A DNA stretch of 54,063 bases, counting the filler, from Catajapyx aquilonaris (Eukaryota), in assembly GCA_000934665.2 (NCBI GenBank). It is 2 parts of 2 records of this genome, joined end to end, with 100 filler letters (N's around TTAATTAATTAA, not from the genome) between each part and the next. Parts side by side here need not be neighbours in the genome. Positions count along the whole stretch, not along the records: positions 26,956 to 54,063 come from JYFJ02005142.1; 1 more part is not named here. One strand, 5' to 3'. The notes under the pieces were generated by a model that saw only the letters and a program-made list of their open reading frames with translations, was not told the DNA's origin and did no database searches. The position numbers were made by a program, and so were the translations under genes. Shown here one piece after another: positions 7,698-53,342 of this stretch; the stretch's first letter is position 1; each line of letters starts with the position of its first letter.

Positions 7698-7998
7698 GGG
7701 TGGAATTTTCGTCTCACTGCTAGTTACGGCTAACTATTAGTACCAGTACCAATGTTGGTAATGGTAACTACTAACTTAGCAGAACCAATGGTGGGAATGG
7801 TTACTACTAACTTAGCAGAACCAATGGTGGGAATGGTTACTACTAACGTAGCAGAACCAATGGTGGGAATGGTTACTACTAACGTAGCAGAACCAATGGT
7901 GGGAACGGTTACTACTAACTTAGCAGAACCAATGGTGGGAATGGTTACTACTAACTTAGCAGTAGCTAGTAGTGGGATGTGAGACGAAAATTCCACCC
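7698..7998. mobile_element. MITE/foldback element containing a 36-bp minisatellite (6 copies)
   Basis: Perfect 20-bp TIR GGGTGGAATTTTCGTCTCAC (7698-7717 / 7979-7998) flanked by TAT on both sides. Internal unit ACCAATGGTGGGAATGGTTACTACTAACTTAGCAGA. Confidence 0.8.
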
Positions 7999-9080: not shown

Positions 9081-9290
9081 ACGGGCCACGCATGCGCAAT
9101 TCTGCCGTCAGATGTAAGAAGACCGTAACTCAAAAACAAGTAAGGGTGAAAGTCGCATGCACGCCCTGCACTAATCCCCTCTGAGTCAGGAGGGATAAGT
9201 CCAGGTCATGCTTGCGACTTTCGCCCTAACTGGTTTTTTGAGTTACGGTCTTCTTACATCTGACGGCAGAATTGTGAATGATTGGTCCGG
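9081..9290. mobile_element. Palindromic (foldback) MITE-like element
   Basis: Perfect ~40-bp inverted repeat 9097-9136 / 9235-9274, plus imperfect inner and outer arm pairing. Confidence 0.75.
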
Positions 9291-16818: not shown

Positions 16819-17676
16819 TGTGTGCGCACTCGGTTGTGTCTGTAAAAAACATTCATCTATAATTTGTATGGAGCGTTGTCATGGCGGCCCGGTTCTTTAA
16901 TAAATTTGTAGCAAAAACGAGAGTGTAATGAAAATAGCTACTAATTTTTGTCGAGTGCATGAGTTTGACATTTACTGGCACACGACACGACATTTTTTGG
17001 GGGGAGACACACCCCAATCTACAGTAGGTGCAAGGAATAACGTCATGTGTAGCATCATATACAGGGTTAAACATTTTTTTTTCAAACCATATTTTTCACC
17101 ACTTGTATGTGAGTCGCAGTGAATCACCCTGTAGTCGTCAGTGGCCCACCCGAGACCCTCGATCCTGTAATGCCCCTCCAAAAAATGTCTACAGGGCCGC
17201 CCCTGGGTCCCAAGGGACACACCTTTGCCGATGCATCACTATTTCCATCCCCCCCCTTCCCTATAAACCCCTGGTATATTACCTTAACCGGAGCTTCAAC
17301 CGCTTTTCCTTTTCATTACACCCGCTTTTTCCCCTGAACGTAATATTCACTTTATTACGGATATTGCGTGTCATCTCGTTTTTTTTTTGGGAGGCCAGAG
17401 TTACAGCTGGGAGGTTATTTGCATATTGCCAAGGGGACTGGAGAGGTCAGAGTCATCATGTACAGGGTGTGTCATCAATGTTGGGTCATTTTGCCACAAA
17501 TATTGGGAAAAGAACTGTGGAACAAAAGGTGTCATTCGCATAAAATCTCGTTGCTGAAATTTTGCCAAAATTTCGCTCGATGTAATTCATTTATAGTATA
17601 GTCCGTAATCGTGCTAATACCTGTAGGTGTTAGTGAACGCGTCTCGAACGAGTGAAACAGGCTGAGAAAATGTACC

Positions 17677-17682
<6 letters not shown>

Positions 17683-17748
<66 letters not shown>
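17683..17748. repeat. (TA)n microsatellite
   Basis: About 33 TA units. Confidence 0.97.
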
Positions 17749-17754
<6 letters not shown>

Positions 17755-18099
17755 AATCATTGCATGTTCAAAGGCGCAGTTGGCTGCCATGTATTTAAAA
17801 CAAAATTTAAAACGATCAGGCCTGAGGGAACTGCTATAAAACGAGTGAATGAATTATTTATAGCGTTTTAAAAAGTGACTAATGTACTGTACATCCATTG
17901 TTTACACAGATGGTTTAGAATTCCATTTTTTTAAGAAAAAGGCAAAAAAATAATATTGTTTTAGTTTTTTACTCAGAGCTGTACATATTCTGCCATTAAA
18001 AATTAACTGTAGTTTTTAACTGTTTGTTCCTGAAAAATTGCAGAGTTGGAAATGAATCGCACTCGTGGAACCTTCCATTCAAATGTCTAAAACAAGTAT

Positions 18100-21959: not shown

Positions 21960-22555
21960 GAAACGGCATCTCTCCATCACAGTTGCCAGCTGAGGAGTCT
22001 CACTTGGAATGGCTTCTCTCCCTCAAAATTGCCAGATGAACATAAATATATTGTTTCCCTCACAGTAATGTTGCCAGCTGAGGAGTTTCATTAAAATGGC
22101 TTCTCTCCATCAGTTTCCAGATAAGTTTCACTAGAATGGTTTTTCTCCTTCAGAATTGCCAGATGAACAGTTTTACTGGGATATATGATCCCCATCACAG
22201 TTACCAGACGCGCAGTCTCACTGGAATGGCTTCTCTCCCTCAGAATTGCCAGCTGAGCATCTCACTGGAATGGCTTCTCTCCCGGAAAATTGCCAGATAA
22301 ACAGTTTAACTGGAACATCTTCTCTCCACAGTTGCCAGATGAGAAGTTTCACTACAAGTAGTTCTCTCCCTCAAAATTGTCAGCTGAGCAGTTTTACTGG
22401 AATGGCTTCTCTTCCTCAGAATTGCCAGATGAACAGTTTTACAGTAGTATCTTCTCTCCATCACAGTTACCAGACGCGCAGTTTTACTAGAATGGCTTCT
22501 CTCCTTCAGAATTGCCATCTGGGCAGTATCACTGGAATGGCTTCTCCTTCCAGTC
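21960..22555. repeat. Degenerate ~45-bp minisatellite
   Basis: Recurring ACTGGAATGGCTTCTCTCCCTCAGAATTGCCAG(A/C)TGA. Confidence 0.85.
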
Positions 22556-24185
22556 TTACCATGTCATGCCAACCAAAATTTTCTCCCTGCAGTGTTACCA
22601 GACCACCCTGCTTGAGTGTCTTCTTCCAGGGTGACCAGATGACCAAGTATCAGATGTAAGTGCCCGAGTGGACATGTCGCGGGTTTTATCCTCGAGCCAC
22701 AACACATAGAAACAGGTGCAGACGACGTGCCTAATTGGCTGTCATCCCTCAAATCCGGAGAAGGAAAAGTGGGGCGTGTCCTAAAGTGTCCCCCTCGCCC
22801 AAGTAATTAGGTTTCGGTTCTTCCCCTGGGGTAAGGGATAACCTATCTGCTCAATCCCCCCTTACATCTTCCAAATGTATATAACCCACCCCTGGGCCTA
22901 ACACACATACAGGGTGGTGCACTGTTGGCTACCCTGGACGTCTGGAACAATCTCAGTTGGCTATCATGTGACTATTGGCTACCCTTCGCCTTTGGACTAC
23001 CTGTCATGGCGGCCCTAAGGGGTTTAAACTTACGAGTTATCTTTTCTCCATGAGGAAAATGCAACTTACTGTCACTGAACTGCCTGTTATAGTGAGAGTG
23101 GACCACCCTGTGCGTCAGAATGCCTGAGTCACCTGGGTGTTGACTAAGGTAGTATCAGTTTTTTTTTTGGGGGGGGGGGGTCTGAATCACCGGAAGGAAG
23201 GCTCTCACACCTTGCCTCTTTTTGTGAGGGAAAGACCCTTGACTATCATCTGGGTTATTGAATTGATTATAGAGGCGACTAACTGCATTGGGAGGGGTGG
23301 AAAGAAGGATTAATACCCCCCTCCCAAAAATGGATTGTTGCGGGTGACATTGGTGACAGGACGCGGCTGATACACATCTTGTCTAATCATGGAAAAAGAA
23401 TAAGAGAATATATTTGCATTTATCAATATTTATCAAAATATTGTATTATAGTGGCTCGGGTGAATGACCCTTACGATAATAATTGGTGCTTGAACCGAAT
23501 GTAAACAAGCCATGATCCCATCTCTGAAAAATACAGGTCATGACCTCCCCCTTCCCACTGTATTACCTTCAAGGCAAAACAAGCCACTCGGGCTTACATT
23601 TCGCGAATGAAATGCTGCATTTTGTCTCTTTTTTTTACCCCCTCTCTTCATTTTTCGCAAACGGAATTTTTATTGAGCGAGTTGTAAACAAGCTGTTTGG
23701 GCTCGCAAAAAAGAGAGAGAGAGAAGCTCCATCTATATTTTCTGCAACCGATTCTCTGCAAAATTACCCCCCAAGGTAGATCCGCGAAAAAATTGTTAGC
23801 ATGTAACACGACTTGATGATTACAATTGACTAATGATCGCAAATTTTCTCTGAAAATGTGACGCGTCACAGTCATGTCGAGTTGAATTTTCGCAAAACGT
23901 ATTTTCGCAATCTGGTTACACCTTGAAAGGTTGTTAGTACGACACGTACAGCATAACTTTTATGGGCCACCTTTGATTACGACATTCAAGTCGACTTACC
24001 CTGTAAATAATTTTGGGAGCTGTGCAATTATGGGTACTCTCGTGCCGACTGGAGTGCGTGAGACACGAGTAATTATTGTCGGTGTACAAAGTTGATACCG
24101 TTAAGTGTAAGTGCTCAACAAGTGATACCGTAATCTTACAACTGTGACAGGGAGGGATTGGGTTCATGCACAATAAGTGAGCACA

Positions 24186-25875: not shown

Positions 25876-26518
25876 CTACTTCCAATTATTTATTATTGAT
25901 TTAATGCCTCACTGGTGATTGAGCCAGTAAATATTAACTAGTATTTTGGCATTAAGCTACTTATTTTAACCAGTTACCAGCTATCTAAAAATAACAGTTG
26001 CAAGAAATTGTCAAACTTGCATACAAGCCTGTTTACTATATTTTTAAAATATAATAAAAGACGAATGTGCTTCTAAAGCTTGTTTTTTTTCGCTGTTAGT
26101 AATCACTGGTAGGAAAAGAAGCGTTCGTGTGAATGTCTTTTCATGCTCAGAAAGAACGCACTGGCATGTTTTCTTCTTCTTAATCATTGGTGGGTATAGA
26201 TCGGTCACTATATGAACGCAACCGAGTGGCTAATTTTATTACATGAAGAAATACAGTTTGTAATAAAAATTCCTGTAATAAAATTGGCCACTCGGTTGAG
26301 TTCGTCTAGTGACCGATCTATAGGAAACTAGATCTGCAAAAACACTCGAGCTTGATTCGAGTAGACTTTTTCTCATTCGGCAGCGGGAAATGAAGCGGAC
26401 AAACCCGATACGATACGACACGATTGCGATTTCTATAGTAATTGGACAACAATGACTGTTGATTGTCAGTCTCATTTCCAGTTGGCAAGAAACCAAATAA
26501 ACGGTAACCTGCCTGTAA

Positions 26519-26855: not shown

Positions 26856-26955
26856 NNNNNNNNNNNNNNNNNNNNNNNNNNNNNNNNNNNNNNNNNNNNT
26901 TAATTAATTAANNNNNNNNNNNNNNNNNNNNNNNNNNNNNNNNNNNNNNNNNNNN
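26856..26955. other. Artificial assembly spacer / contig join
   Basis: Exactly 44 N + TTAATTAATTAA (stop codons in all six frames) + 44 N = 100 bp. Confidence 0.95.
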
Positions 26956-27049
26956 CGACATAGCGAAATGAAACAACCGCTAGTATGCGGTTGGGTGGCC
27001 ATAAGCTCGTCTGACGACCTCGCCGCGAGGTAGAGAAAATTTCGGTAAG

Positions 27050-27209
27050 GGAAATTCGCGGTTTTGAGAATTTTTCAAAATAGGATTGCGGGTGCAAGGA
27101 ATCCAACGGTGTAAGTCCGAGGTCTGTACGACCTCGGGAAGTGGGAGATCTTTTCCATCCTCCTCCTCCTCCTATATCCTCCTCGGCGTGGGGCTTTATA
27201 TATATTAGA
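27050..27209 (-). mobile_element. Helitron-like element (family 2), 5' portion
   Basis: Minus strand A|TCTAATATATATAAAGCCCC...CACTTCCCGAGGTCGTACAGACCTCGGACTT; homologous to 36616-36760. Confidence 0.6.
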
Positions 27210-28639
27210 TGACTCCTTTTGATAGCTGCTATAATTGACTATTGTCTTTGGAACTGCTTAATAACGAGCAGATTAGTGCGAATAAACTGCTAACTCAAGC
27301 GAGGCAACAAATTTTATACGCACTATCGCTCTTTAAAACTGGATTTTTATTTTTTAAACTGAACCACCAACATATTGCACCGTATTTTCATTGGCATCCC
27401 TCCCACTTTTAATTGCAGGTATTTTCTTTACTAAGTGCGATGGTCCAGTTGCACACGCAAACCAATTAAGACTCTATAAACACATGTCTATTCGCGCAAT
27501 AATTCCGTTCATACAAAAAAAAAGCGCTTTGCTTGTGGCGTCGCTTTGAAATATGCCTGCCACACACGGCATAGTCCGGCAAAGCAAATATTGATATTTG
27601 CAGTACAACAATCGCACGATAAATTCAGAAATGTGATCAGCATTGTTATGACAAGGCCTGCAGGTATAGGCAAGAACCTACGAGTGAACGTAATTGGGAT
27701 TTATTTACTCCCGGTTTGAACAGATGAAGCAAAAACAGAGGATTATTTTGATTCCCTCCGAGATAATATTATTGCTTCAATGCGATCTGTTATCCAGAAA
27801 CATTAGGCAGTGTAATTAAAAGAGGCATTTTGGTTACCTACTTTTAACACTACGCTATTTATTATTATGTACTTATCCTTTACCGGTATGTAAATGGCTT
27901 TCTGACATGTTCATTTCAATTGTTGACAAGAGCAGCCTGGTCCATCCCTGGCTTAATGTCAACCAACATTGAAATTTCTTTTTATACCTAACTTGCCAGA
28001 ATTAAAAGGAGACTCGGCCTCTACTTTGGCAAGGTGCCTCTAAGTGTCAGCAGAGAAGAGATGCAATATATCCCCCCCTCCCCTCCCCAATTTTATCCCC
28101 ACAACCCTGCTTGTCACGCCAGAAAAGCCAAAAAGTTTTTGGCAAAGGCCCGCAAACACCCACACTTCAAGGCGGCCCCAAAGACTCTCTGAAAAACTTC
28201 ATTTTGAAACCAGCCAGTGCACCGATCAAGAAGAGAGAATATGCAAGCTTCTCGCCATATTATGATGAAGAAAAAAAAGGGGGGGGGGGTTCTATTATTG
28301 CACTATTCGCACCTCTGCGCCGTTTTCTATGATACGACATTTTCTCGTTTAAACTGAAAGGAAAAGAGCGTCGTTTCCGGCCTTGATTTGTTGGAAGCTT
28401 GGGCATGAACTTCGCATATCCGATAGTACCTCTACGTTTATATATAACACGCGTATTCATACAAGTTGTGCAAAGTTCAATATAAAGAAAAAAAAGGGTA
28501 TAACAAGCTCATCATATCTGTGGTGTAACACCCACTTCATGGAACTAAAAGAATGGAGAGAAAACGCTCTGACGTTTTACATCCGCGAGATTGAAGCAAA
28601 GTGCATGCGATATGACCAGTCCTATCGCAAGTACGCACA

Positions 28640-28718
28640 ATGCTCATTGTCATCCGACTCAGGACGTGTCTGTCTGTCCTTTTGCTGCTGGCCATCTCTA
28701 CCAGGCCTTTCCGTCCAG
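28640..28718 (+). CDS. Pacifastin-like peptide precursor, exon 1 (putative signal peptide)
   Basis: ACAATG start with an in-frame upstream TGA. Encodes MLIVIRLRTCLSVLLLLAISTRPFRP (basic then hydrophobic). Phase-1 donor CCAG|GTAAAT is compatible with the acceptor at 28811. Confidence 0.7.
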
Positions 28719-28811
28719 GTAAATATATATAGAATTGGCTTAGTCTGTGACTCTGTCCGCGGTAATGTGCCATCTATGTGAAAGATTTGGTACTTGGATA
28801 TATTCGTGCAG

Positions 28812-29038
28812 AACCGTGTCCTGAAGGAAGCATGTACCAGACCGGATGCAACGAGTGTACCTGCGGATTCGAACCTGAGTTGGACCGATGCACGACCGAG
28901 ACGTGTCTGCTGGAGCATCGGTACCTGCAGCCGTCCACGTCGGACAGAAGACCACTGGAAACGAAGCTTCGTTTACCCTCCGTTACTGTGAACGATCCCA
29001 GTCCAACAGCGTGGCATCCTGCTTACGACCGCAAATAG
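28812..29038 (+). CDS. Pacifastin-like peptide precursor, exon 2 (pacifastin/LCMII-type domain plus C-terminal tail)
   Basis: Acceptor TTCGTGCAG|AA. Encodes PCPEGSMYQTGCNECTCGFEPELDRCTTETC..., i.e. C-x9-C-N-x-C-x-C-x8-C-T-x3-C, the six-cysteine pacifastin pattern. TAG stop at 29036-29038. Confidence 0.8.
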
Positions 29039-29080
29039 TGACTTTAACCAGACATTTAATGGACAAGAGTGTTTATTAAA

Positions 29081-29086
29081 AATAAA
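29081..29086 (+). promoter_or_regulatory. Candidate polyadenylation signal of the pacifastin-like gene
   Basis: AATAAA about 40 bp after the stop codon, with ATTAAA variants on either side. Confidence 0.5.
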
Positions 29087-30018
29087 ATTAAAATGCGACT
29101 TCGTGTGAAACGTATAGCATTATTTTTTTTAAAAAAATGCTCGCGAATTATTGCAGCTTGCAGTACCGGTACTGAAGGCAATACGGGGCCCCGTATGATC
29201 GATGTAGGCGTACCAACCACAATTACACACTTACAAGATCACAGAGAAGTTTGTTTACTCCAGCAAATCGTACTATTTTTGCAACAATTCCATTGTTGCT
29301 ATCGTCTCTTTTAAAATGGTTGCTGGAATGAACAACCCACAATTTAATATTTTTCCTGAGGTTGGACACAGTCCACATTGTTTTTAGCAAAAAAAAAAAA
29401 TCTGCAGTAGTGTTTATAATCTGCCAACTATGCAAAAAAAAACAAAGTTGACGTCACATTGTTATAATCCGCTTAACATGTCCGACTGTATAGTGTGGCT
29501 GACTACAGTTTATTATTATTATTTTTGCGAGAGAAAATAATGCCACTGCGAATTTCATGCATAATATTAGCCACTTGTTGAGTTCAAATTTTTTTTGCGC
29601 AGTTTTCGCAACTGTTGTGAGTGATTATTTCGCCAAATCGGATCGATTACAGTGGTCCGAAAGCCCATCAATAATATTTTGCGGTCAATTTGTCAACATC
29701 AGTTGGCCCACCAATTTTTTTTTGCGATTTATTATTTCTGCTGATTTTTTTTTGCGACATGTGTTACGAATCCGTCTTTGGAGCGTCCGTCGTCTCATCA
29801 TGTCAAGAGTGATTTATTAGGGTTCGCGAGGCAGAGCTTTCAGCACGATTACGTTGTAATATTGCCGTTGTCAAGCTTTCTGCCTCTTTATTTTTCTGCG
29901 CATCGACTCTAGGTAACCGAGAGCATTTGTCTCCTGACCATCTACAGGGTGTTTCAAAAAATATCGGTTAGCAATATTTTCACTACATACTAAACAGTCA
30001 CTTTTTGGACTTTAAAAA

Positions 30019-30533
30019 AATCACACAAGGCGAAATGCCGTGCCTGGCAGGGCCACAACACAGGACAGTACTGGTGCGGTCATCAAAAGCCATACAGATA
30101 GTGATGCACTCTTGTTTTCTCCTAAATTAGTGATCGTACGGATTTTAAAAATATATACAGCATACATATTAGAAAAACGAGCATTAATTTAGCCTAATTT
30201 AGGAGAAAACAAGAATGAATCACTATCTGTATGCTGCCGTCAGATGTGAGAGGACCGTAACTCATTATCCACTTCCCTTGCGGCGAGAAAAGAAAGCAAG
30301 TGTTACCGAAAGCATCCAAGAGGTGGCGTTGGAGGAAGGTGGCAAAAAGGAACGGCACCCCAACTCCACCTGTTGGGTGCTTTTGGTACCACTGCTTTTT
30401 TTCTCGCCGCAAGGGGAAGTGGACACTGAGTTACGGTCTTCTCATATCTGAAGGCAGTATGGCTTTTGGTTACCGCACCAGTGCTGACCTTTGTTGCGGC
30501 CCTGCCAAGCACGGCACGTCGCATTGAGTGATT
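30019..30533. mobile_element. Large foldback element with long imperfect arms; left arm interrupted by a second MITE
   Basis: 30019-30094 pairs with 30458-30533, and 30234-30332 pairs with 30360-30457. A related arm fragment lies at ~16210-16325. Confidence 0.8.
30095..30229. mobile_element. Tc1/mariner-type MITE nested in the foldback
   Basis: 36-bp TIR CAGATAGTGAT(G/T)CA(C/T)TCTTGTTTTCTCCTAAATTAG, flanked by TA on both sides. Confidence 0.75.
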
Positions 30534-31442
30534 CCAATCAATTTTTTTTTGTAAAAAATCAATCAGGAGGAATTAACAATTTTGCTTACGCTTGGAAGTG
30601 AAATTGTCGCTTGAAAATTAGTGTACACTGTACAGTATAGTAGCACTCAGCTTAATTGCTCAAGTACTCTCTCTTTTTTTGTTGTCTTTTTCCTCTTTCC
30701 TCATCATGCAGCCTCATTATCCGAACCAGACTCGGGGCAATTAGGCTGATTCACTATACATTATCTGCACATAATATTAGCCAGCTATAAAGAACCGTTT
30801 GAAAAGAAGGTCCATTGTTGGCTGGTCCGCGCAATTATTTTTATTTGTTGAAAAAAAAAATTGTTACCAACATTTCTTGAATCGGGACACAGGGACTGTA
30901 GACTCTGTGCAATTTCTGTCGCGGATTTGCATGCAAATATTTAACAACTGCCTTTGTACTTTGCAACCTGATTTTGCCCCGCAGTCTTGACTGCATCCGA
31001 TAAGCTGGAATGGAAATTGCGCCAGGTATTGCGCGAGTCTTAGATATTTTTTAAAATGCCCCCCCCCCCCCTTTTAAATCTGAATTGTTGGCACACTGTT
31101 TCCCACCCTGCTTCGAGATTGAAGGAACGACGTTGCCAATTTAAATTCGCACATTATAGTTCAGAAATGTTATCGGCATCTCTGCTTTAAATCATGATTT
31201 AATTATGATAAAAATCTGCAATGTATTCGTCTGGGACCGTGTATTTTATACGACTAATTCCAGTTCAAATTAATGCGCACGTGAGCGGTGCACTTCCAAT
31301 AATTACTCCGCTTATCACTTGAGCTGGTATAATGAGCGTACTGTACATTGCACGACATGCGTTATTTTTGTATTATGACATTACTATAGATATTACTAGC
31401 CAAATCTTGGCAACATTGCCGACAAAGTTCCTTACTTCGATC

Positions 31443-31541
31443 ATAGATGGCGCAACCTCCCTCTCTGCACGTTACTGCCACTTTCAGTCGTGCGGGGGGA
31501 AATTGCACTACATGCACGTTGGTGATGATTCACTCCGGACA
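31443..31541 (+). repeat. Dispersed repeat with AGATGGCGC and CCGCGGACA-like motifs (other copies ~32591-32682, 41973-42040, 53790-53850 on +; 15420-15500, 21165-21268, 38478-38558 on -)
   Basis: Shared TAGATGGCGCA...CTCTCTGCAC...ACTACATGCACGTTGGTGATGA(G/C)TCACCGCGGACA segments. Confidence 0.7.
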
Positions 31542-33321
31542 TTTTCAGACATAATTTTGGAGTCAACAAGATTTGGAGCACATCAGTAACAAGACATGCC
31601 TCACCTGGGTTAACAGGCAGGCTTCATGTTACACTCGATCCCTGTTGACTTTGTTCTGTTCAAAATTGAAGGGCACATTAGACAAGGGGTTCGTGTTGCC
31701 GTAAACCGCGATTGACTTCGTGCTGTGTACCAGTCACCTCAGCGCAAAGTTTGACACTAATAAGGTCTCACAGGAGATGCAGTACCTGCCATCTGTCTTG
31801 TGTGCAAAAGGATTACCGCTGCCATGGGATACCACCAAGTGCGGGCTTCAAGGTCACTCTTAGGTACAGTTCCTTAGCGCTACAGTTATCGTAACTTGAG
31901 CATATCTGGGTAACGAAGCTCTGCAGATCAAACGACAACTTGTACATAAAATGATCCTGTGATGTTCACCCTCGGAGTTTGTCGGAATCATCTTGTCATA
32001 TGGTGTCGATCAGCCCCCTCTTTTAGCTAGACAGGCCTGCTTTTCATATGCGGCGAAATGACGCGAGGACAACACGGGAAATGGCAGGTTGAGCAGCCGC
32101 ATATTCACCCCTCCCACGTCAGTCTTCAAAATCCGTTCGAAAGGCAATTTGTACCCAACTCGTTTTGATGGATCGACTTCTCTTCCTTCCGGAGGAAATT
32201 TTTAGTGAGTGACGTGACTTGAACGACATCCAAATGTGTGCTGGACCGCGGCCCCTTCTCTATATACCCGGAGACTAAGAGTTGAAAAGAGTTTAGAGAC
32301 TCACTTTGCAATCCCCTAAGTGACTGAGGGTCGGAGCTACCTGAATAAAATATTATCCCCTGGTTGGTTCCTGTAAAGCAATCTGCTGGAAGAGACCATC
32401 GGATTTAAACATTTCGGCCATGGAGAAGTCTCATTTTCTGTGGCCTTTACTGGTCCGAATGGGCGACCATAGAGGTCGAGGAAGCAAGGACATAACCTGT
32501 GAAAGAATCGCCGAGTTACATCGAAGCGAACAATCATCCAAAATTCGGCAACACTGCCTGTCTTGGGCGTCCAGTACGATTTGTCGCTAACAGATGGCGC
32601 ACTCTGCCTCTCTGCACACTACTACCCTCTACGGAGGAAAGTAGTACTACATGCACGTTGGTGATGAGTCACCGCGGACAGAACCTAGCCAATTTGTAGG
32701 AAGTTGAGGCATAACCGGGGCGTAAAAATGAGTTTACAATAAAACTGTGCAAATTAGGTCGCACTGTACTGTACAGTGCAAGGTTAAACTGAATCCAATG
32801 GGTCGGATGTCATGTAGTTTACAGATTGTCATGTTAGGCCGTTAATTAGGCAATGCTGGACGATACTTATTTCGCATTTTGCTTTTAAATTATTCATGCG
32901 CTCGATCAGTTAATCTGCAGTTTATTGGAATATAAGGGGCAGGCTCAGTTGGATTAAAAGGCCAATATGTGAGTGGAAAATACTGGTTATGTGCCATGTT
33001 TACGTATGAAGCCTTATGCTAATATTAAGGTATAAAATATGAGGGGGTCTTTTTAACATTTTGCACACTGTGTTTCGACCGGAGCTGCTACAACATCCTT
33101 GCGAATTATTTTTAATGATGCACATAATTATGGTGCACTTAACCTACAAAAGTCAGTTTTCCTGCTGGAAGCTAAATCCAGGAGTTGTTTAATCATTTAA
33201 ATTCGGCCTTAAATACTTCAGTGCATTGCGGGTTGGTCCCCAATTGCAACAAAAGTAGCAGCGAACTAAATAAGTCTGTCGCAACAATGAAACGAACGGC
33301 CGGGTGTCTGTTAGGTGCCAG

Positions 33322-33481
33322 GAGCCACATACTCATCAAGGTGACTCGCAATCGACAAAGTCGATTGACGTCAAAATGACGTAGCCAATTCTCCTCCCCC
33401 TGCCCTGGTTGGCATTGGCGACGTCATTTTGACGTCACTCGACTTTGTCGATTGCGAGTCACCTTGATGAGTATGTGGCTC
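33322..33481. mobile_element. PIF/Harbinger-like palindromic MITE
   Basis: ~68-bp near-perfect arms beginning GAGCCACATACTCATCAAGGTGACTCGC; 3-bp TSD CAG. Confidence 0.8.
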
Positions 33482-33546
33482 CAGATAATTGCGGAATTAT
33501 TGTGAACCAGCGGCGTTTCTCAGGTTATGAAATACTTTTCCACATA

Positions 33547-33737
33547 CAGGGTGGTCCAAGTTCAAGTGTCGTTTTATAACGGCGATTAATAGAAGCGCTT
33601 AACGATGACGTAGCAGCGACGTGTAAAATTGCCCACTTCGATTGCGCCGAAGATGCGCCGAAGTCGCTGCTACGTCATCGCAAAATCACTGCTATTAATC
33701 GCCGTTATAAAACGACACTTGAACTTGGACTACCCTG
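33547..33737. mobile_element. Tc1/mariner-type palindromic MITE
   Basis: TIR CAGGGT(G/A)GTCCAAGTTCAAGTGTCGTTTTATAACGGCGATTAATAG; TA TSD. Confidence 0.85.
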
Positions 33738-34571
33738 TATATAGGAGTAACTAATTGATTTCGTCGTTAACTTCGCAATAATTGAAAGGGTCTTTATGAT
33801 ACTCTTGCGTAATTTTTGAAAGCAACCGCGATTAAACCAGCATATAAATCCAATTAAACTCCAAGCCCAGTTTTAATATTTCAATTGATGTGTCTTATAC
33901 GATACTGTATAGTACCTTCCTCTAATTATTAGGAGGGGGCTGCTGCAATCCGATGCCAATTTGCCTGGCACAATATTTGCATCGAGCTCCGAACTGAGAT
34001 TGGCGAATTCGACTCTGGTGAACTCTCCCAGGGAAAACGGATGCGCCTATTTATTATACCCCCCTCCCAGTTTGTTCTTGAGGAAAATACATGCAAGCGT
34101 GATGAATAAGTCAGTGTTTAATCAAATGAAGAGTTTGGAGGCTTGAGGTATGTGGGCGAGCAAGAAATTGCCAAACAATATTGGGTTTCAGAACAGCTAA
34201 TTTGAAAGTTATATGCTCTCAAACTTGGGGGGGGCTTCGGTGCATATATCGGGAGAGGAGGAGGAGGAGGAGGAGGAGGGCAAATAGTGTTGGCGTCTTC
34301 AAGTGCAAAGTTTTAGTACCCCACCTTCCATGGCTCAAGGATGTGGCAAACTAAGGTGGAAGGAAGTGCTACTTTGCCCACCTTTTTTTGCTAATTAAGA
34401 GGCTATAATCTGATAGGGGGGGGGGGAGGTGTGGTTGTGTGCTAATTTATCTCAGGCAGTGTCTCGCTCCAATTCAGGGTTTTGCAAATTTCACGCTTTT
34501 CTGATTATATTATATTAAGCAAGCTCTACTTTAACAGTTTTTCAAAAGTAACTGTCATGAACTGCTATACA

Positions 34572-35260
34572 AGTAGCAGCGGAACCCGTTCTTCGCACGG
34601 CCTGCTTCTCCATGGCAATGTAATCAACAACAATCAATCATTGATGCCATGATAACACGTTGCCATGGATCAACAGACAAACAAGCACTTTCCTTTACAG
34701 TTTACACATACAGTGTAAGATACCAAGGTGAGACGTTACCATGGACAACCAAACAAACAAACTTTCCTTTATGTAAGTTATATGTAAGTTGCCATGATAA
34801 CCAGTTGCAATGGATAAACAGACAGACGCTTTCTCTTACAGCTTACACATATGTAAGCTGGACAAACAAACAAACAAACGAACAGAAACTAACCTTCCCT
34901 TATGTATGTATGTTGCCATTATGGAAACCCATTGCCATGGATAAACAAACACATGTTTTCCCATGCACATCATTATGTAACATGCCATGGTAAGACGTTG
35001 CCATGGACAAACGAACGAACGAACGAACTTTCCCTTATATAATTATGTAAGGTTGCCATGGATAAACAGGCAAAGAAACACTTTCCCTTCCACATGTGAG
35101 ATGCCATGTAGACGCGTTGCCATGGACAAATAGACAACATCACGAGACAAAGAAACAAACTTTCCCTTATATAGACTACAGATTATATATAAGGTGCGAT
35201 AGAAGCCCGTTGCCATGGACAAACATACAAACAAAATTTCCCTTATTTATATGTGCAAGA
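34572..35260 (-). mobile_element. Helitron family 1 copy with ~10 tandem degenerate 5'-end modules
   Basis: Single 3' end (minus-strand CCGTGCGAAGAACGG hairpin + GTTCCGCTGCTAC) at 34572-34602, then repeated CCATGGA(C/T)AAAC...ACTTTCC(C/T)TTA modules matching the 5' part of 14532-14671. Confidence 0.7.
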
Positions 35261-36261
35261 TGTTTGGTTCCATGGCAATTTGAGCACATGAACAACAGGC
35301 ACAAAATGCAAATGCAAAATGAAATTCAGTAGACATTAAAATGAGGACAGGATCCTTCGTATATACATTGTATTGATTCAAGATATGCGCCTTAAGCTGC
35401 AACCTCACAATCAGCGTAATGGACGTGGATTTTGCTGCCAGAAGGAAAATCGCGAATGCTTCTGTGTTTTTGGCACACACAAAGAAACCTTTTTATAGAG
35501 CCGCTTTTTCTGAGAGAGAAGAAGAAGCCTGTTGAATAAAACCTCGTGGCACATCCTGTATGACTGCTTATTCATAGTCCGACGATTCCGACAAAATGTG
35601 CTTCAGGGAGCACTTCCAAAAAACGAAACAAAATACATAAACTGGCCATCTCAGCACTCTCTCTCTCGCGGAAACCCAGCACATGCAGAGTTTGAAAAGA
35701 AAATTCGCAAACATGGACGGATATTTTTGATGCATTTTCTTGTGTGGCCAAAAACCGGGGGGGAGGCAATTTCGCCAAATTGCACTCCCATGTCGAGAGG
35801 CAAAATGGTGCGAATATGCGATTCACATCTCTGGCGAATCCTGCGGGCCCGGGCTAGAAGCGGCCATTAATACCTCGAGGGGTCGCCACGTCATAAAAGC
35901 GGAAATTGCGCAGTCCAAATTCCGCATAATTGATACCCCCCCCCCCACCCACCCACCTTTTTATAGCCCACCATTCAGCTCAATTATTAAGCTCTGCTGA
36001 TGCGAATTTATACGCTTTCTTATATAATTATGACACCTTCGATGCAAATATGTAATTACTGGACTAATTGACTGTATGTCAGTCTGTTGTTTGTCCAGGA
36101 TGAGTCATCATCTAGCCGAGTGCGCCAAACAGTTCGCGCAGCTTGCACGGTTGGAACTATCAATGACTAGCAAGTAACAACGTTACCCGGGCGTGTTGTT
36201 TAAATATACGTAGCCTACTTCTGATACTTCCTCCATATGTATTCGATATGCTCAGTTTGAC

Positions 36262-37067
36262 CAGGGAGCATATACTACGTAAGAGGCGCAAACTTCTGTC
36301 GGCGCCTTTGATGTCCACGTCTCTCTGTTTGGGGCCGTTGCCAAGGCTGGCGGCCATTTTGAAGTGTGGGCACCGCCAACGAGGTATAAATAGGGTACAG
36401 GCAAAAAAAAGGGTCCGACATCTTTGATGGTTTTGGCAGCCACGGCAACTACACGGCAAGAACACGCGCGAATCAAAGATGGCGGACACTATTTTTGCCT
36501 GTACCCTATTTATGGCTCGTTGGCGTTGCCCACACTTCAAAATGGCCGCCAGCCTTGGCAACGCCCCTAACAGAGAGACGCGGAAATCGAATGTTTGCAC
36601 CTCTTCTATCTTCTATCTAAGATATATAAAGCCCCAATCCGACGAGGAGGATGAAAAGGATTTCGCACTTCCCGATGTCGTAGAGACCTCGGACTTGCAC
36701 CGTTGCATTTCTAGCCTCCGGTATACCAATGCCAAAAATCCTCATAATCGCAAAATTCCCAGCCGTTTTGGAGATAGCCAAATTAAATGTAGACGCAAAC
36801 TCCCCGAGAACAATAGCCCCATCCATCACCCCCTGACAGCTGCATCCACTCTAATCCCACGTAGACTTTTTTCATGATACGTCACCTAGGGCGCATTTTA
36901 ATACTCCACACCTTTGTGGACCGTGACGTCACGGGTTCTGTAAACGGATGGATTACGGCGGAATACGGGCACCGCGCCCGCAAGTGGGGCGCAGACCCAC
37001 GGGGGGGTCCGGGGGGGCGGAGCCCCACCGGCTCGCAAAGCGAGTATGTAGTATATTATGCTCCCTG
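36262..37067. mobile_element. P-superfamily-like palindromic MITE with a nested insertion
   Basis: Termini CAGGGAGCATA / TATGCTCCCTG; 7-bp TSD GTTTGAC (36255-36261 / 37068-37074); long internal arms 36281-36428 / 36471-36605. Confidence 0.8.
36616..37051 (+). mobile_element. Helitron-like element (family 2) inserted near the right TIR of the P-like MITE
   Basis: A|TCTAAGATATATAAAGCCCC 5' end homologous to 27050-27209; 3' hairpin CTCGCAAAGCGAG followed by TATGTAG|T (3' boundary uncertain). Confidence 0.6.
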
Positions 37068-37525
37068 GTTTGACTCTCATTTGACAGATGCTCTTATTTC
37101 CAACGCTACGCTTGCGGGGGTGGGGGGAATGGCCGACGTTTGCGACGTTGCCAACATCTATATAGTACCGTTTAAACCCCTGTTAACCTGTAGCTCACGA
37201 CGATACTTTATTGTCACTGGAGCTGGATAATTCTCCAGCCCTGGAGGGCGAATGGTCCTGCGATAGTGTGTGCAACATCCGGTGTGTTCAACAACAAGCA
37301 AGTAGTGTAAGCAACGTAGAGGTGTAGATAAGAAGGGCCTTTTCCTGCCTTGACATCAGCAGACTGGGGGCTTTATGTTTTGGGACCATATCGATTCAGC
37401 TTCCGGAGAGTTTAATCGGGGGGATTTCGAGTCCTCCGCACGCCTGACTCTGGCTGGATCCAGGAGCTTTATAAAACCAACCTTTTTAAGACAGTGTGTA
37501 CGGAGAGAATATAAGACCCCCCCAC

Positions 37526-37686
37526 CTGTTGATGAAGACGCATGTCTTGGCGAACATGAGGAACCAGAGGTCCATGAAGGGCTCTCCGGTGAACATGGTG
37601 GCGAAGGAGTTGTAGACCAGCATCCCTCTGTAGGGCAGCCAGAGGGTTGCGAAGATGGCCACCACCACCACCAGCATCTTCACCAC
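37526..37686 (-). CDS. TRHR: TRH/EFLamide receptor-like GPCR, coding exon 3 (TM6 to TM7)
   Basis: Long polypyrimidine acceptor TTCCTTCTTTCCAG|GTG, then VVKMLVVVVAIFATLWLPYRGMLVYNSF...WFLMFAKTCVFIN (WxPYR is typical of TRH receptors). Phase-2 donor AACAG|GTGGGG. Confidence 0.92.
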
Positions 37687-40600
37687 CTGGAAAGAAGGAA
37701 GGAAAGAAAAAGTTTTTTAAAAATATGAAAATTGGGCAGATTTAATCAAACTTCAAATACCATCTGTGACATACCATGAAAAATGACATTTGACGCCAAC
37801 GCCATCTGCGACATACACTGGGAACTGACATTTGACTCCAACGCCATCTATGATTAATTTTGTCATTTATGTGAACTTCAAGCCGACTCCTTAATATAAA
37901 ATTGATAACTGCCTCTTACTGCATGTATACCGTTTGATATAATGTAGACTTACAACTTGTTAAAACTTTTTGCACAAATATGTAGGCCTATATCTTTTCA
38001 GACGACATATTTTCTAGGGGCTAATCAGATGTCGGTTCTCCTATACAGAAATTGCGTTTAAAGTGTCCTGAACTGTCATAAACGAAATTATTGTGCTCGG
38101 TACCCAAATACTGTATTTTCAGTTTCTCAACTGCCACTCAATTCCCTTATGGGGGCGGATAAGAAGAGAACGAGATCAGGAAATTTGAGGTATATAGTCA
38201 GCTAGAGCTCTCCAAAAGATACTTTGGCATTCATTCGTCGCGCCCATCTTATCATGTTGGCACGTTCTTTGCAATGTAAGGAGTTGCGCAAATTTATATA
38301 TATTCGATTCTTCGGAGCTGCAAACGTGCAGCCAAAATGTGGGGCAGGAAAGGTCAAGGTCAAGTCACAACACATTTTGATATTCAAGTCACCGTTGGAT
38401 ATCAAGTTAGGTCTTCATATGATTGCCATGTATATAAAATTGGTTGGAGTCTGTGACTCTGTCCAGGTTCAGCTATAGGTGCATGTATAGTACCACTTTT
38501 TCTCACACGACCCTGAGAGTGGCAGCAGTGTGCAGAGAGGGTGGATCCGCCATCTATGAACAAAGTGATAACCTTGCCAAAACTTGAACCATATTTCAGG
38601 TTAACAATTCCTGGCTCATTATTTCTCTTCGATTCTTATACCCCGCCTAATGATCTCTCTAATTGTGTACACTGCAGTAAATATATCCCCTAAGCTAACT
38701 CGGCTACTGACGTCACAGACGGGGCGGACCCCACCTTAAATAGCCAAGAAAATATTCAATAACCCAAACATCATTTCCTCCCCTAAATTGAGAAACAGCT
38801 CATGCAAACTAAACCCATTTGTTCATCGCAAACATGATCACCAAATGTGTTTTGCTCCCCCCATATACATTGCATCTATGACGTCAGTAGCCATTATTCC
38901 CCTGTAATGATTAATCTCATATTGAAGGAAGGGGCATTAAAACATCATCATAAATCACTGCAACAGAATATTAATTTAAATAAAATCTATCCTTGCAATG
39001 CTTGGCTGAAACATTTTGTGCCTCTTTTGCGACATGTTCTTCCAGGTCGTAATTAATTCGCGACAGATTTTGTAAAGGCACAGCTTGTCCAGAACAAGGT
39101 AACAATTGTTGAAAAGAAGAAAAAAAAATACCAAATCAGCATTGGTGCCAATTTTTTTCCCTTCTTTTAGTTCCGTTTCCGATATCCTCTCGCCCTTGTA
39201 TGAAAAGATCGTTATCAATAGGACCCCGTCTCGAGAAGAAAAAGGTGGTGGTGCCAGAAGGTATCACAAAAGGAAGCACAGCTGGAGACTTCTCTTTTCA
39301 AGGCTCCAAGCTTGAATATTTCATACTTCGAAAGGCCCACCCCCTGGAGCCACCCCCAAAAATTCTCTTTTTTCATGCAATTCGACCCAAAGAGCGGCGC
39401 TTTCCACCTTCGAAATTTTTTGTAAAACATGTTTAATGCATTTTTATACCCCACCAGAAGCTTCCAGATGACTTTTTCTCAAAAGTTCATACAATGACAC
39501 GATCACTATTGTATATATTTTTTTTCGTCTGACAAAATCCGGGCTTAATCTTCGAGTTAAGCCACAGGTTGTAATCAGATTAATTTGTACGTCAATCAGC
39601 TCAAGTTAAATTGGACTTTCCGTAATATTTGGATTAAATGTAGTTAATAGCTTTTTACGTTATTATTAATTGACAGTGCACTGAGCCACATTTTATCTAA
39701 AAGCTATACCGTATACTTCTAACTAAGGGCAGATAAAATATTTATTTGTCATAATATTACCAACTACAAGTGATATATTAGCTGGAACTATAGTTGTTGG
39801 AAAATGCGCAAATTTTAATTTACAAATTTGGCTAAACTAGTTGAATTTTCACGCCAACAAAATTTGACCTTGTGTACTATTCATGACCAATAAAAATGAC
39901 TCCAACTAATACATAATTTGTGGATACTGCAGTGTTACACTCCAGTAAGAGGACCAATTACTCGCAGAATTTTGCACATTATTGAGCATCATAATTCGAC
40001 AATTATTGAAATGAATGAGGAGGTCCATTGGCTGCAGTAATTGGAAAATCTACTCTAATGCTCTCATTTACTGAACAGTTCAGATTAATTGAACTCGCAT
40101 TAATAGAATATGTGCAGGGGCCTTGATGAGCCGTGGGAAACAAACGTGAGAGGCCAAATGAAGCATACGGAAATGGTAATGTTCTCCGCGGGGCAAAACT
40201 TTTTAGATCCACAGGAGCCATACATTTGCATATTTTGCCCCCACCACGATTTCCACTCGCGATGTAGTTATTCATCATCCACTATGTTTGCTTCCACCTA
40301 GAGTTTCCATCCGAACACACACACACACCGTGAAAAAGGGGGGAAAGGTCATAAGTTCATTAATTATTGCAAGGAACACAATGAGACCCAGTAACTTTTC
40401 GAGACAATGGGTCTTATACAATGTTATAATGCTGTCCCGATTAATGAGACGCCTTCATGAATATTCTGTCAGATTTTTGCCTCAATTGATGAGCATGTCA
40501 TACTCTTCACGAAGTTCGTTGCAATATGACTTCTATTACACTTTCTAATCAGCCGATTAGAGCTTAACTGACAGTTGGTGCAAGCCTGTAACAGCATTTG

Positions 40601-50774: not shown

Positions 50775-51026
50775 CTGCGCCCTGGCCGAGTTGGCCCTGG
50801 CAGCCTCGACGGGTAAGGGGCCGCCCCCGAGCTTCCCCTTGCTGGAGCTGGCCCTGGAGGCGAAAAGGACCCGGGCGATGAGCGAGTAGAGGATGCAGGA
50901 GAGGACCAGAGGCGCCAGGTAGAAGACGATCAGGTCCGCGAAGAAGTAACCCAGGTACTGCTGACGGGACAGTTTGAACGTGCACATTTGCACCTCTGGA
51001 AGGCCTCGATAGTGAAGCGGCTCCGT
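50775..51026 (-). CDS. TRHR: TRH/EFLamide receptor-like GPCR, coding exon 2 (ECL2, TM5, ICL3; 84 codons)
   Basis: Acceptor TTTTTTCAG|ACG, then TEPLHYRGLPEVQMCTFKLSRQQYLGYFFADLIVFYLAPLVLSCILYSLIARVLF...SARAQ, donor CAG|GTCAGT. 252 bp, phase 0 at both ends, in frame with exons 1 and 3. Confidence 0.92.
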
Positions 51027-52784: not shown

Positions 52785-53342
52785 CTTGGTGAGGAAGAGC
52801 CAGGGGAAGCAGTAGAGTATGGCGAAAATCCACACGACTAGTATGATCCTCTTGGCTCTCCTGACGGTGCAGACCGCGTGTGCCCTCATGGGATGGCAGA
52901 TGGCGATGTACCGCTCGACAGTGAAGGCGGCCAGACTCAACGAGGACGCGTTGATGCCCAGATGCTGCAGGAAGATGAAGATGGCGCATCCGGCCGATCC
53001 CCAGATCCACTTGTTGCCCAGGAGGTAGTAGGACAGGATCTCGTTGGGTACGGAGGCCAGCAGGACCACGCAGTCCGCAACGGCCAGGCTGACCAGATAG
53101 CAGTTGGTCGGGGAGTGGAGGCTCCTGGACCGATTGACCACCGCCACCACCAGGGTGTTGCCAGCCAACCCTATTATCATGATCAGACCTTGGAACAGCG
53201 TACCCACAAGTCGGTACGTGTGGGAGTAGTACTGCGGCTCTTCCTCCCAAAGCTCTTCTTCGACGCCACCTGACCACTCGGGGTTGACCAACACTCCATC
53301 GCTGCTGTTCGTACCGTTTATTAAAGACACTATCGGATCCAT
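52785..53342 (-). CDS. TRHR: TRH/EFLamide receptor-like GPCR, coding exon 1 (N-terminus to TM4; 186 codons)
   Basis: ORF MDPIVSLINGTNSS... with N-glycosylation sequons, TM1 GN, TM2 TNCYLVSLAVAD and TM3 LGINASSLSLAAFTVERYIAICHP (TRH receptor family signature). Ends AAG|GTAAGA, a phase-0 donor. Confidence 0.93.

Follow-up and report, generated by a model that had tools for sequence, protein, structure and literature searches.

The locus raises two questions: whether positions 28640-29086 on the (+) strand hold a gene for a secreted pacifastin-like peptide, and whether such a gene lies inside an intron of the thyrotropin-releasing hormone (TRH)-like receptor encoded on the opposite strand. Both had been proposed in a sequence-only reading of the same window, i.e., the whole stretch of 54,063 nt of Catajapyx aquilonaris DNA that was analysed. 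Judged from its sequence, the interval is likely a real, unannotated, small two-exon gene of a divergent pacifastin-like type. The explanation we favour, with a confidence slightly better than even, is a real secreted gene of the pacifastin-like inhibitor type that is probably located in the last intron of the receptor.

Gene model and sequence signals

All the sequence elements of the proposed gene (ATG, splice sites, stop codon, and AATAAA) were found at the positions given by the sequence-only reading, and the peptide quoted there agreed with the computed translation. The coding part of exon 1 (28640..28718, (+)) comprises the initiator Met and a signal-peptide-like segment, 26 codons plus one base, and ends at the donor CAG/GTAAAT. 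It is followed by a 93-nt phase-1 GT-AG intron (28719..28811, (+)) with 39% GC, ending in tgcag. The coding part of exon 2 (28812..29038, (+)) carries the pacifastin-like domain and then a tail of 43 aa before the TAG stop codon (29036-29038). Scripted joining of the exons gave 306 nt joined in phase 1, and the frame was intact across all 101 codons. The polyadenylation signal AATAAA (29081..29086, (+)), 43 nt 3' of the stop codon, is the single AATAAA within 28300-29200, and ATTAAA variants are present at 29075 and 29087. Intron bases 28723-28763 are similar to short repeats at 53818-53848 and 38428-38464.

In the 5' flank, a pattern scan retrieved a weak candidate TATA box (TATAAA, 28481..28486, (+)) 159 nt 5' of the ATG and no Inr match alongside it. 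Four upstream ATGs (28539, 28553, 28605, and 28612) lie between this TATAAA and the main ATG, all at most 101 nt from the start, and two of the four open long overlapping frames. The start codon at 28640 has A at -3, and the polypyrimidine tract at the 28812 acceptor is weak (55% pyrimidines). A total of 39 ATG/GT/AG models could join an upstream ORF to the frame of the domain. A hydrophobic signal-like core was present in only four of the 39, all starting at ATG 28640, and the most consensus-like donor among these four was that at 28718, which is the donor of the sequence-only model.

Exon 1 in its entirety encodes the signal-peptide-like segment. By a heuristic test, the putative signal peptide has a basic n-region with Arg6 and Arg8 and a hydrophobic core at residues 11-19 with a mean Kyte-Doolittle value of 3.19, and small residues at -3/-1 permit predicted cleavage after residue 18 or 20. 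The one extra cysteine sits in the signal peptide, and thus, the mature peptide would have exactly six. The claim that the strand opposite to the receptor holds a gene of two exons, the product of which is secreted and has a cysteine framework of the pacifastin type, was upheld, with the signal peptide assigned by the heuristic test. According to PMC2689174, insect pacifastin genes have a first exon for the signal peptide, and a whole domain is encoded by a single exon; the present gene follows this layout, with exon 1 given over to the putative signal peptide and the complete domain contained in exon 2. The further remark that domain exons are often in phase 1 was not found in PMC2689174, where the word 'phase' occurs zero times. 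One-domain pacifastin precursors exist, e.g., in the pea aphid Acyrthosiphon pisum (PMC2689174), and the peptide resembles this precursor in combining one signal peptide with one domain in a small gene, a likeness of architecture alone, as the aphid sequence was not among the matches of any search. Unlike in pacifastins, the single domain is followed here by a 43-residue non-domain tail.

The base composition marked out the coding part, which has 56% GC (GC3 of 62%); the intron has 39%, and the 500 nt on either side have 43% and 35%. Such GC at any codon position was reached by only 0.2% of 5000 random 306-nt windows from the same contig. The nearby receptor exons had a GC3 of 79-92%, above the 62% of the peptide gene. 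This deficit, together with the four upstream ATGs and the weak polypyrimidine tract, speaks for the possibility that the locus is a decaying or never-expressed relic, i.e., a former signal exon and pacifastin exon that have stayed open without being under selection. We consider a relic unlikely, as the 101-codon frame is intact and the six Cys, the Asn, and the Thr are all retained. In addition, nothing is amiss with the splice sites or the phase of the junction, with the context of the start codon, or with the poly(A) signal, and the sharp GC contrast between exon and intron persists.

Family assignment of the six-cysteine domain

The domain (28817..28906, (+)) spans 30 residues from Cys1 to Cys6, with a predicted reactive-site loop of Cys-Thr-Thr-Glu-Thr-Cys. 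Its pattern, C-x9-C-N-x-C-x-C-x8-C-T-x3-C, fits the cysteine definition of the pacifastin family, Cys1-x9-12-Cys2-Asn-x-Cys3-x-Cys4-...-Cys5-Thr-x3-Cys6 (PMC2689174). A search for the pattern, in strict or loose form, gave a single occurrence across all six frames of the window (54 kb), and none of 300 dinucleotide-preserving shuffles contained it. Further pacifastin domains, as in a multi-domain gene, were not found in the six frames of the window.

The Pfam check named in the sequence-only reading succeeded in part: the peptide matched Pacifastin_I with an E of 6e-5, but its 23.1 bits were below the curated cut-off of 27.9. Pacifastin_I (PF05375, which we take to be MEROPS family I19) was the single Pfam match of the peptide at an E of at most 10, and the longer ORF around the domain scored 22.5 bits with it. 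An HMM built from 242 natural domains gave the peptide 12.0 bits, compared with 24.8-55.6 for its own members. A Pfam scan of the 90 stop-to-stop ORFs of at least 88 aa in the window gave matches for the receptor and the pacifastin-like ORF and, apart from these, just a weak one to Beta-prop_RIG_1st. The Beta-prop_RIG_1st ORF, which overlaps the region 5' of exon 1, scored 19.9 bits against a cut-off of 27, had no PDB support, and was judged a chance match. No RNA family was retrieved from Rfam for 26956-38000.

When 1.84 billion representatives were searched exhaustively with HMMER, two matches came back, of which one was true, the 14-domain pacifastin protein P0121 (E of 2.5e-9). The second match, P0122, was a repetitive translation without a pacifastin domain and was discarded. 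The PDB sequence search gave 10 matches, all of them weak (E of 0.089-4) and all to pacifastin inhibitors, with a gapless alignment over the Cys1-Cys6 span. Compared with PMP-C, the 30-residue Cys1-Cys6 span and the cysteine spacing were identical and gapless, and an aromatic residue stands six positions after Cys1, where PMP-C has Phe. In an alignment of 27 sequences, the six Cys and the Asn were invariant, and the peptide and the pacifastin-like domains share both the Asn after Cys2 and the Thr after Cys5.

The pacifastin fold is a small antiparallel beta-sheet core held by three disulfides, with the pairing Cys1-4, Cys2-6, and Cys3-5. The AF2 model of the peptide had a pLDDT of about 90 over residues 1-30, with the qualification that the pacifastin alignment used as input (27 sequences) biases it toward that fold. 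The single-sequence AlphaFold model was poor (pLDDT of 56) and was set aside. With the pacifastin-alignment model, Foldseek ranks 1-22 were all pacifastin inhibitors, with a target-normalised TM of 0.50-0.74, an rmsd of 1.7-3.4 A, and an E of at least 0.15. VIA gave a lone match among 48,161 chains, pacifastin 7sap_B, with a Z of 2.3. The structures compared included those of locust PMP-C/LCMI-II and SGPI/SGCI (PDB 1gl1, 1pmc, 1kgm, and 4djz) and the 2022 entries 7snd, 7sap, and 7sgq; the fold predicted by the pacifastin-alignment model superposed on these at an rmsd of 1.7-2.5 A over 30-33 columns.

Taken singly, each database match was statistically weak (PDB, Foldseek, and VIA alike), which speaks for an open frame that arose by chance and has its cysteine pattern by accident. 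We regard such a coincidence as very unlikely. All the weak matches pointed to one family, pacifastin; the pattern was absent from the 300 shuffles, the Pfam E was 6e-5, and the locus combines a signal peptide, a correct-phase junction, and a poly(A) signal with a GC island.

The sub-threshold profile scores (23.1 versus 27.9 and 12.0 versus 24.8 bits) also bear on the relic explanation and speak for it, as does the lack of a detected orthologue: a word-indexed search that was queried with the exon-2 product and confined to proteins 40-130 aa long gave no candidate. This lack carries little weight, since a lone domain of 30 residues cannot become significant when billions of sequences are searched. 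The ESM Atlas gave a best score of 0.77 to an unnamed cluster, below a meaningful level. Divergent six-cysteine domains that profiles miss or barely detect are described as 'cryptic' pacifastin homologues in PMC13388995, and the peptide has the Cys scaffold and the Cys2-Asn motif in common with them. For that source, the C4-C5 Gly is a key motif of universal occurrence, and the peptide lacks it at that position. On the sequence evidence, this divergent domain probably belongs to the pacifastin family.

Divergence, reactive site, and probable function

The peptide differs from the known pacifastins in several respects: it scores below the Pfam gathering score, has Pro in place of the hinge Gly, and shows little similarity outside the framework positions. 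Its C4-C5 loop has eight residues; Cys4 is immediately followed by a Gly, and the hinge position is occupied by Pro. A hinge Gly two to three residues after Cys4 is present in 235 of the 242 natural domains and absent from seven, and the peptide is likewise without it. This C4-C5 Gly is named a conserved structural hinge in PMC13388995, which also supplied the position rule for the P1-P1' residues. By that rule, the P1-P1' pair of the peptide is Thr-Glu, whereas Arg, Lys, or Leu is common at P1 and Lys, Arg, or Met at P1'. P1 Thr was found in four of the 242 natural domains and P1' Glu in none. The loss of the conserved Gly and the unusual reactive site would also be compatible with a relic. 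Cys5-Thr and Cys2-Asn, which frame the canonical loop, are retained.

For the preferred reading, a gene of the inhibitor type, the proposed mechanism is as follows. Exon 1 would provide the signal peptide, and exon 2 one six-cysteine domain followed by a disordered tail of ~43 residues. Once secreted, the disulfide-locked domain would, by analogy with its family, inhibit an S1 serine peptidase in the canonical, substrate-like manner, presenting to it the Cys5-Cys6 loop with Thr as P1 and Glu as P1'. A Thr-Glu reactive site argues against trypsin as the target; the target may be a chymotrypsin- or elastase-like enzyme, or inhibition may be weakened or changed.

The same residues could mean that the peptide is a secreted pacifastin-type fold that is no longer a protease inhibitor and has another binding or signalling role, or that a processed C-terminal peptide is the active product. 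The atypical reactive site and the missing hinge Gly, which is said to orient the reactive loop, favour this explanation, and so does the small resemblance to natural domains beyond the Cys, Asn, and Thr positions (12.0 bits versus a minimum of 24.8). The 43-aa tail, for which the AF2 model had a low-confidence pLDDT of 53-62, has Arg-Arg at residues 72-73 and Arg-Lys at its end, and these bracket a 26-residue peptide. However, pacifastin reactive sites are highly variable, with 17 P1 and 14 P1' residues, and a P1 Thr has been discussed as possibly chymotrypsin-directed (PMC2689174). The loop frame of Cys5-Thr and Cys2-Asn is kept, and no family other than pacifastin was matched by the tail or the domain in Pfam and the ESM Atlas. 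A loss of inhibitor function is improbable in our estimate.

If expressed, the inhibitor-type gene would add to the small genes for secreted, protease-inhibitor-like products that automatic annotation passes over, and it is easy to miss, with a 79-nt first exon, a 101-aa product, and a domain below the Pfam threshold. Pacifastins regulate serine-protease cascades in arthropod immunity, e.g., the activation of crayfish prophenoloxidase (PMC2689174). A single-domain member with Thr-Glu and without the hinge Gly would extend the sequence space known for the scaffold, and it would agree with the claim, made in PMC13388995, that many divergent pacifastin homologues escape sequence profiles. The peptide gene is helpful for annotation but ordinary and not surprising.

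Position relative to the TRH-like receptor

Three coding exons of the receptor were located on the (-) strand. Exon 1 (52785..53342, (-)) runs from the start codon to the TM4 region, matches 7tm_1 with 123 bits, shows 55-80% identity to arthropod proteins that carry the name TRH receptor or TRH receptor-like, and ends at the donor AAG/GTAAGA. Exon 2 (50775..51026, (-)), located by tblastn, encodes TM5 and the third intracellular loop between the acceptor ttttcag and the donor CAG/GTCAGT, and exon 3 (37526..37686, (-)), the last receptor exon in the window, encodes TM6 and the start of TM7. Among the best 120 of 1088 receptor matches, nearly all the named ones were TRH receptors or TRH receptor-like proteins (46-80% identity). 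The sequence places the receptor as a rhodopsin-family, TRH-like (EFLamide-type) class A receptor, and EFLamide would be its ligand according to the literature (PMC7294237).

Exon 3 ends in a phase-2 donor, AACAG/GTGGGG, exactly where 11 of 11 homologue alignments stop. The last exon, which should encode TM7 with NPxxY (Ser-Ala-Ile-Asn-Pro...Tyr) and helix 8, was absent from the whole window in tblastn searches with 11 homologues, and an HMM of 74 C-termini gave a best match with an E of 0.26 on the wrong strand. Candidate last exons at 3486-3563, 7145-7225, 26341-26463, 29531-29662, and 34477-34509 were rejected for stops, lack of NPxxY, or AT-rich non-coding sequence. The sequence-only reading had held that a last receptor exon at 29100-37525 would speak against nesting, and neither tblastn nor the HMM found one there.

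That reading had also placed the two genes on the same side of an assembly spacer. They do share a contig, but the spacer is an artificial contig joiner (26856..26955, strandless) consisting of N44 + TTAATTAATTAA + N44, the 12-mer of which puts stop codons in all six frames. As the joiner is artificial, 1-26855 and 26956-54063 are two separate contigs. The peptide gene lies 1.7 kb from the end of its own contig (26956) and 8.4 kb beyond receptor coding exon 3, on the opposite strand. Of the nesting claim, the opposite orientation, (+) for the peptide gene and (-) for the receptor, was confirmed, whereas host exons were found on the high-coordinate side alone (53342-37526) and the final exon was absent. 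Nesting follows only for an intact receptor with a last exon beyond 26956.

The genes may instead stand tail to tail, with the peptide gene downstream of a receptor that is a truncated copy, is on a misassembled contig, or has its last exon elsewhere. We consider this arrangement doubtful but a substantial possibility. It would account for the absence of a receptor exon on the far side of the peptide gene, where the contig ends 1.7 kb away and the other contig (1-26855) has no receptor exon on either strand. A barnacle homologue (P0054, 400 aa) is annotated with a read-through end at the same exon boundary, a case that shows how readily assemblies or annotations can lose the last exon. A working 7TM receptor requires TM7, however, and the three receptor exons are intact, 55-86% identical to homologues, and bounded by clean splice sites. 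As these exons are collinear, an intact gene places its last exon beyond 26956 and the peptide gene in intron 3. Intron 2 already measures 13.1 kb, making a long intron 3 plausible. The peptide gene is thus probably, not demonstrably, inside the last intron of the receptor.

Nested genes are common in arthropods. The present locus is like them in having a small opposite-strand gene 3' of an internal donor of a long-intron receptor gene and differs in that the window yielded no host exon on the downstream flank, the feature by which nesting is defined. In the library searched, no paper combined pacifastin with a nested gene. Co- or counter-regulation of the peptide gene and the receptor, suggested in the sequence-only reading, is speculation. 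A more elaborate version, in which a lineage-specific ex-inhibitor antisense in the last intron of the receptor is coupled to it by transcriptional interference or a shared neuroendocrine pathway, seems to us a long shot. The host/nested pair, if true, would be routine for long-intron arthropod genes.

Structure of the putative peptide gene

The sequence somewhat favors a real, unannotated gene that would encode a secreted single-domain pacifastin-like peptide, acting as a canonical serine-peptidase inhibitor with non-trypsin specificity. The two-exon ORF proposed by the sequence-only reading was recovered in each of its elements by direct reading of 28400-29300 (plus strand). The coding part of exon 1 (28640-28718) begins at ATG 28640, with A at position -3 and the closest upstream in-frame stop at 28613, and stays open for 79 nt to a terminal CAG followed by GTAAAT. 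A 93-nt intron ending in tgcag leads into the open coding part of exon 2 (28812-29038), which closes with a TAG stop at 29036-29038; the sole AATAAA within 28300-29200 lies at 29081-29086. A scripted join of the exons gave 306 nt (101 codons) with a phase-1 junction, reproducing the proposed 101-residue product and 93-nt phase-1 intron. Neither exon has a second copy in the window.

All GT...AG models joining ATG-initiated ORFs to the frame of the pacifastin-like domain (same contig, intron of at least 40 nt) were enumerated. A signal-peptide-like core occurred in only four of the 39 models, all starting at ATG 28640, and among these four the originally proposed model has a consensus-like donor (CAG/GTAAAT) and an acceptor immediately 5' of the domain. 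Its product starts with two Arg residues followed by a hydrophobic core (residues 11-19, mean Kyte-Doolittle 3.19), and small residues after the core permit signal-peptidase cleavage past residue 18 or 20. One of the seven Cys residues is in the presumed signal peptide and six are in the domain (residues 29, 39, 42, 44, 53, and 58). A 26-residue C-terminal stretch is flanked by Arg-Arg (72-73) and the terminal Arg-Lys; dibasic processing sites are described for insect pacifastin precursors (PMC2689174). The two-exon layout is the same as that of insect pacifastin genes, in which the first exon carries the signal peptide and one exon corresponds to one or several whole domains, the number of domains per precursor varying from one (pea aphid) to many (PMC2689174). 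Automatic predictions of these genes were often wrong, according to the same paper; it makes no use of the term "phase", which leaves the remark on phase-1 domain exons in the sequence-only reading unconfirmed.

At 56% GC (GC3 62%), the coding sequence stands out as a GC island from its intron (39%) and its 500-nt flanks (43% and 35%). When 5000 windows of 306 nt were drawn at random from 29600-37300, only 0.2% reached 62% GC at any codon position. Because the receptor exons have a higher GC3 (79-92%), codon usage gives a moderate signal. Four upstream ATGs (28539, 28553, 28605, and 28612) lie 3' of the sole TATAAA (28481), two of them with long frames extending across the main ATG, and the polypyrimidine tract of the intron is weak (55% pyrimidines). 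These upstream ATGs and the weak tract count against a well-expressed gene and would fit an unexpressed relic, a reading that we regard as unlikely beside the open two-exon frame and its GC island.

Assignment to the pacifastin-like peptides

Translation of the window in six frames contained a single instance of the cysteine pattern, whether in its strict form (with Asn and Thr) or its loose form (cysteines only), and none of 300 dinucleotide-preserving shuffles contained it; an open frame or pattern arising by chance is thus highly improbable. No second pacifastin domain was detected in the window by pattern scan and HMM in six frames. The sequence-only reading had called the peptide pacifastin-like, and Pacifastin_I was indeed the sole Pfam family matched by the exon-2 product at E<=10 (E 6e-5), but its 23.1 bits were below the gathering score of 27.9. 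No protein of 40-130 aa was matched in a word-indexed homologue search with the exon-2 product, and HMMER, run exhaustively on 1.84 billion cluster representatives, retrieved two proteins, P0121 (E 2.5e-9; 14 Pacifastin_I domains) and P0122, the latter rejected as a repetitive artefact. Among PDB sequences at E<=10, all 10 distinct matches were pacifastin-family inhibitors (7snd, PMP-C 1gl1/1pmc, SGCI 1kgm, SGPI-2 4djz/3tvj, 7sgq, 7sap, 7snc, and 7sao); each alignment was gap-free over the 30-residue Cys1-Cys6 segment and not significant by itself (E 0.089-4). Approximately 30% of pacifastin homologues are described as "cryptic" to sequence methods (PMC13388995).

The family is defined as Cys1-x9-12-Cys2-Asn-x-Cys3-x-Cys4-x2-3-Gly-x3-6-Cys5-Thr-x3-Cys6 (PMC2689174). 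The domain in the window fits every position but Gly, which is regarded as a conserved hinge of the C4-C5 loop (PMC13388995); this loop has its usual length of 8, with Pro in place of Gly. For comparison, 52 further pacifastin proteins were retrieved with P0121 as the query. The extraction pattern matched 43 of the resulting 53 and yielded 265 domains (242 unique); it had no match in the remaining 10. In this sample, which is biased to Diptera and Lepidoptera, the Asn after Cys2 (237 of 242) and the Thr after Cys5 (228 of 242) are shared by the window's domain, while the hinge Gly (235 of 242) is absent. Of 3509 six-frame segments, the ORF in the window scored highest with an HMM built from the 242 domains, at 12.0 bits (E 0.028) versus 24.8-55.6 bits for the HMM's own members; the framework is therefore that of a pacifastin, with the remaining sequence far from typical. 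As the curated Pfam score is not reached and the hinge Gly is missing, two defining features of the family, the domain is classified from its sequence as a divergent pacifastin-like variant and was not filed as a family member.

With P1 taken as residue 2 of the Cys5-Cys6 loop (PMC13388995), the window's domain has Thr at P1, found in 4 of the 242 natural domains, and Glu at P1', found in none. A Thr at P1 has been called "unconventional" and possibly chymotrypsin-directed (PMC2689174). Re-use of the scaffold in a non-inhibitory role would accommodate these residues and the lost Gly; given the retained framework, we consider it improbable and prefer the inhibitor with non-trypsin specificity.

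The single-sequence AlphaFold model of the peptide was poor (pLDDT 56). With a 27-row alignment of the peptide and pacifastin proteins, in which the invariant columns are the six Cys and the Asn, pLDDT rose to about 90 at residues 1-30 and was 53-62 in the tail, which is probably disordered. Foldseek against the PDB returned nothing at E<=0.001 for this second model; ranks 1-22 were all pacifastin-family inhibitors, followed from rank 23 by VWF and mucin cysteine-rich modules. The best match was 7sap_A (E 0.15, probability 1.00, target-normalised TM 0.74, rmsd 1.9 A, 31 columns). VIA, a search independent of Foldseek, gave one chain at Z>=2 among 48,161 representative chains, the pacifastin 7sap_B (Z 2.3, rmsd 2.0 A over 32 residues). 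The model appears compatible with the pacifastin fold and is not independent proof of it, because the alignment was composed of pacifastins.

The receptor and its third intron

Three coding exons of the TRH-like receptor were located on the minus strand by tblastn with 11 full-length homologues and by splice sites: exon 1 (53342-52785; 7tm_1, 123 bits), exon 2 (51026-50775), and exon 3 (37686-37526), together 323 codons plus 2 nt. The best relatives, among the best 120 of 1088 matches, were arthropod proteins named thyrotropin-releasing hormone receptor(-like) (46-80% identity); closest over all three exons were a springtail protein (70%) and a Daphnia protein (74% for the aligned parts). The exon-3 alignment lacks the 4-residue gap present versus chelicerate sequences; a pancrustacean is therefore the most likely source.

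Every homologue alignment ends with ...Phe-Ile-Asn, at a phase-2 donor. Neither tblastn nor an HMM of 74 homologous C-termini detected the following exon (Ser-Ala-Ile-Asn-Pro-x-x-Tyr, helix 8) anywhere in the window; the best HMM match had an E of 0.26 and lay on the wrong strand. A short match at 34477-34509 (minus strand) was rejected as AT-rich non-coding sequence. The barnacle homologue P0054 (400 aa; aligned to 37519-37659) ends by read-through of the exon-3 donor, with …Ile-Asn-Arg-Tyr-Gly where the window reads …Ile-Asn-Arg-Trp-Gly. The intron position is thus common to both, and the last receptor exon is absent from at least one public annotation.

The "spacer" at 26856-26955 consists of N44, TTAATTAATTAA, and N44, with stops in all six frames, and is a synthetic joiner; the window therefore consists of two joined contigs, 1-26855 and 26956-54063, which need not be neighbours in the genome. 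Upstream of the ATG of the peptide gene, the contig continues for another 1,684 nt before it ends. The gene lies 8.4 kb past the exon-3 donor, and intron 3 covers at least 10.6 kb on the contig (intron 2, 13.1 kb). The sequence-only reading had placed the gene inside intron 3, unless the last receptor exon lay within 29100-37525; tblastn and HMM found none there, and that exon is absent from the whole window. Provided that the contig is correct and the receptor intact, with exons collinear, the peptide gene lies inside intron 3. Inferred as it is from an exon not seen, this nesting is plausible but unproven, and we consider it fairly probable. Co-regulation of the two genes is speculation.

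Surrounding sequence

When all 90 stop-to-stop ORFs of at least 88 aa were scanned against Pfam, matches were confined to the receptor, the pacifastin-like ORF, and a weak match to Beta-prop_RIG_1st (28416-28649, plus strand, in ORF 28353-28778; E 3e-4, 19.9 bits versus a cut-off of 27). The last overlaps the region immediately upstream of exon 1, had no PDB sequence support, and is probably a chance match among the 90 ORFs. No Rfam family was found in 26956-38000. In the first contig (1-26855), no ORF of at least 88 aa had a Pfam match and neither strand carried a receptor exon; this contig apparently consists of non-coding or repeat sequence.

The intron piece at 28723-28763 resembles 53818-53848 (94%, 31 nt) and 38428-38464 (86%, 37 nt) and may be a short dispersed repeat. 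Some 1 kb past the 3' end of the peptide gene is a palindromic element of about 500 nt (30019-30533), whose outer arms (30019-30095 and 30457-30533) are 86% complementary and whose inner arms (30091-30233 and 30231-30460) are likewise self-complementary; related pieces occur at 16206-16294 and 9096-9272, and the element looks like a MITE-type repeat. Tandem or microsatellite-type repeats at 7733-8089, 11768-12241, 22189-22656, and 17535-17868 appear as long repetitive open frames, with translations that repeat every 12, 10, or ~17 residues and a run of TA-rich dinucleotides.
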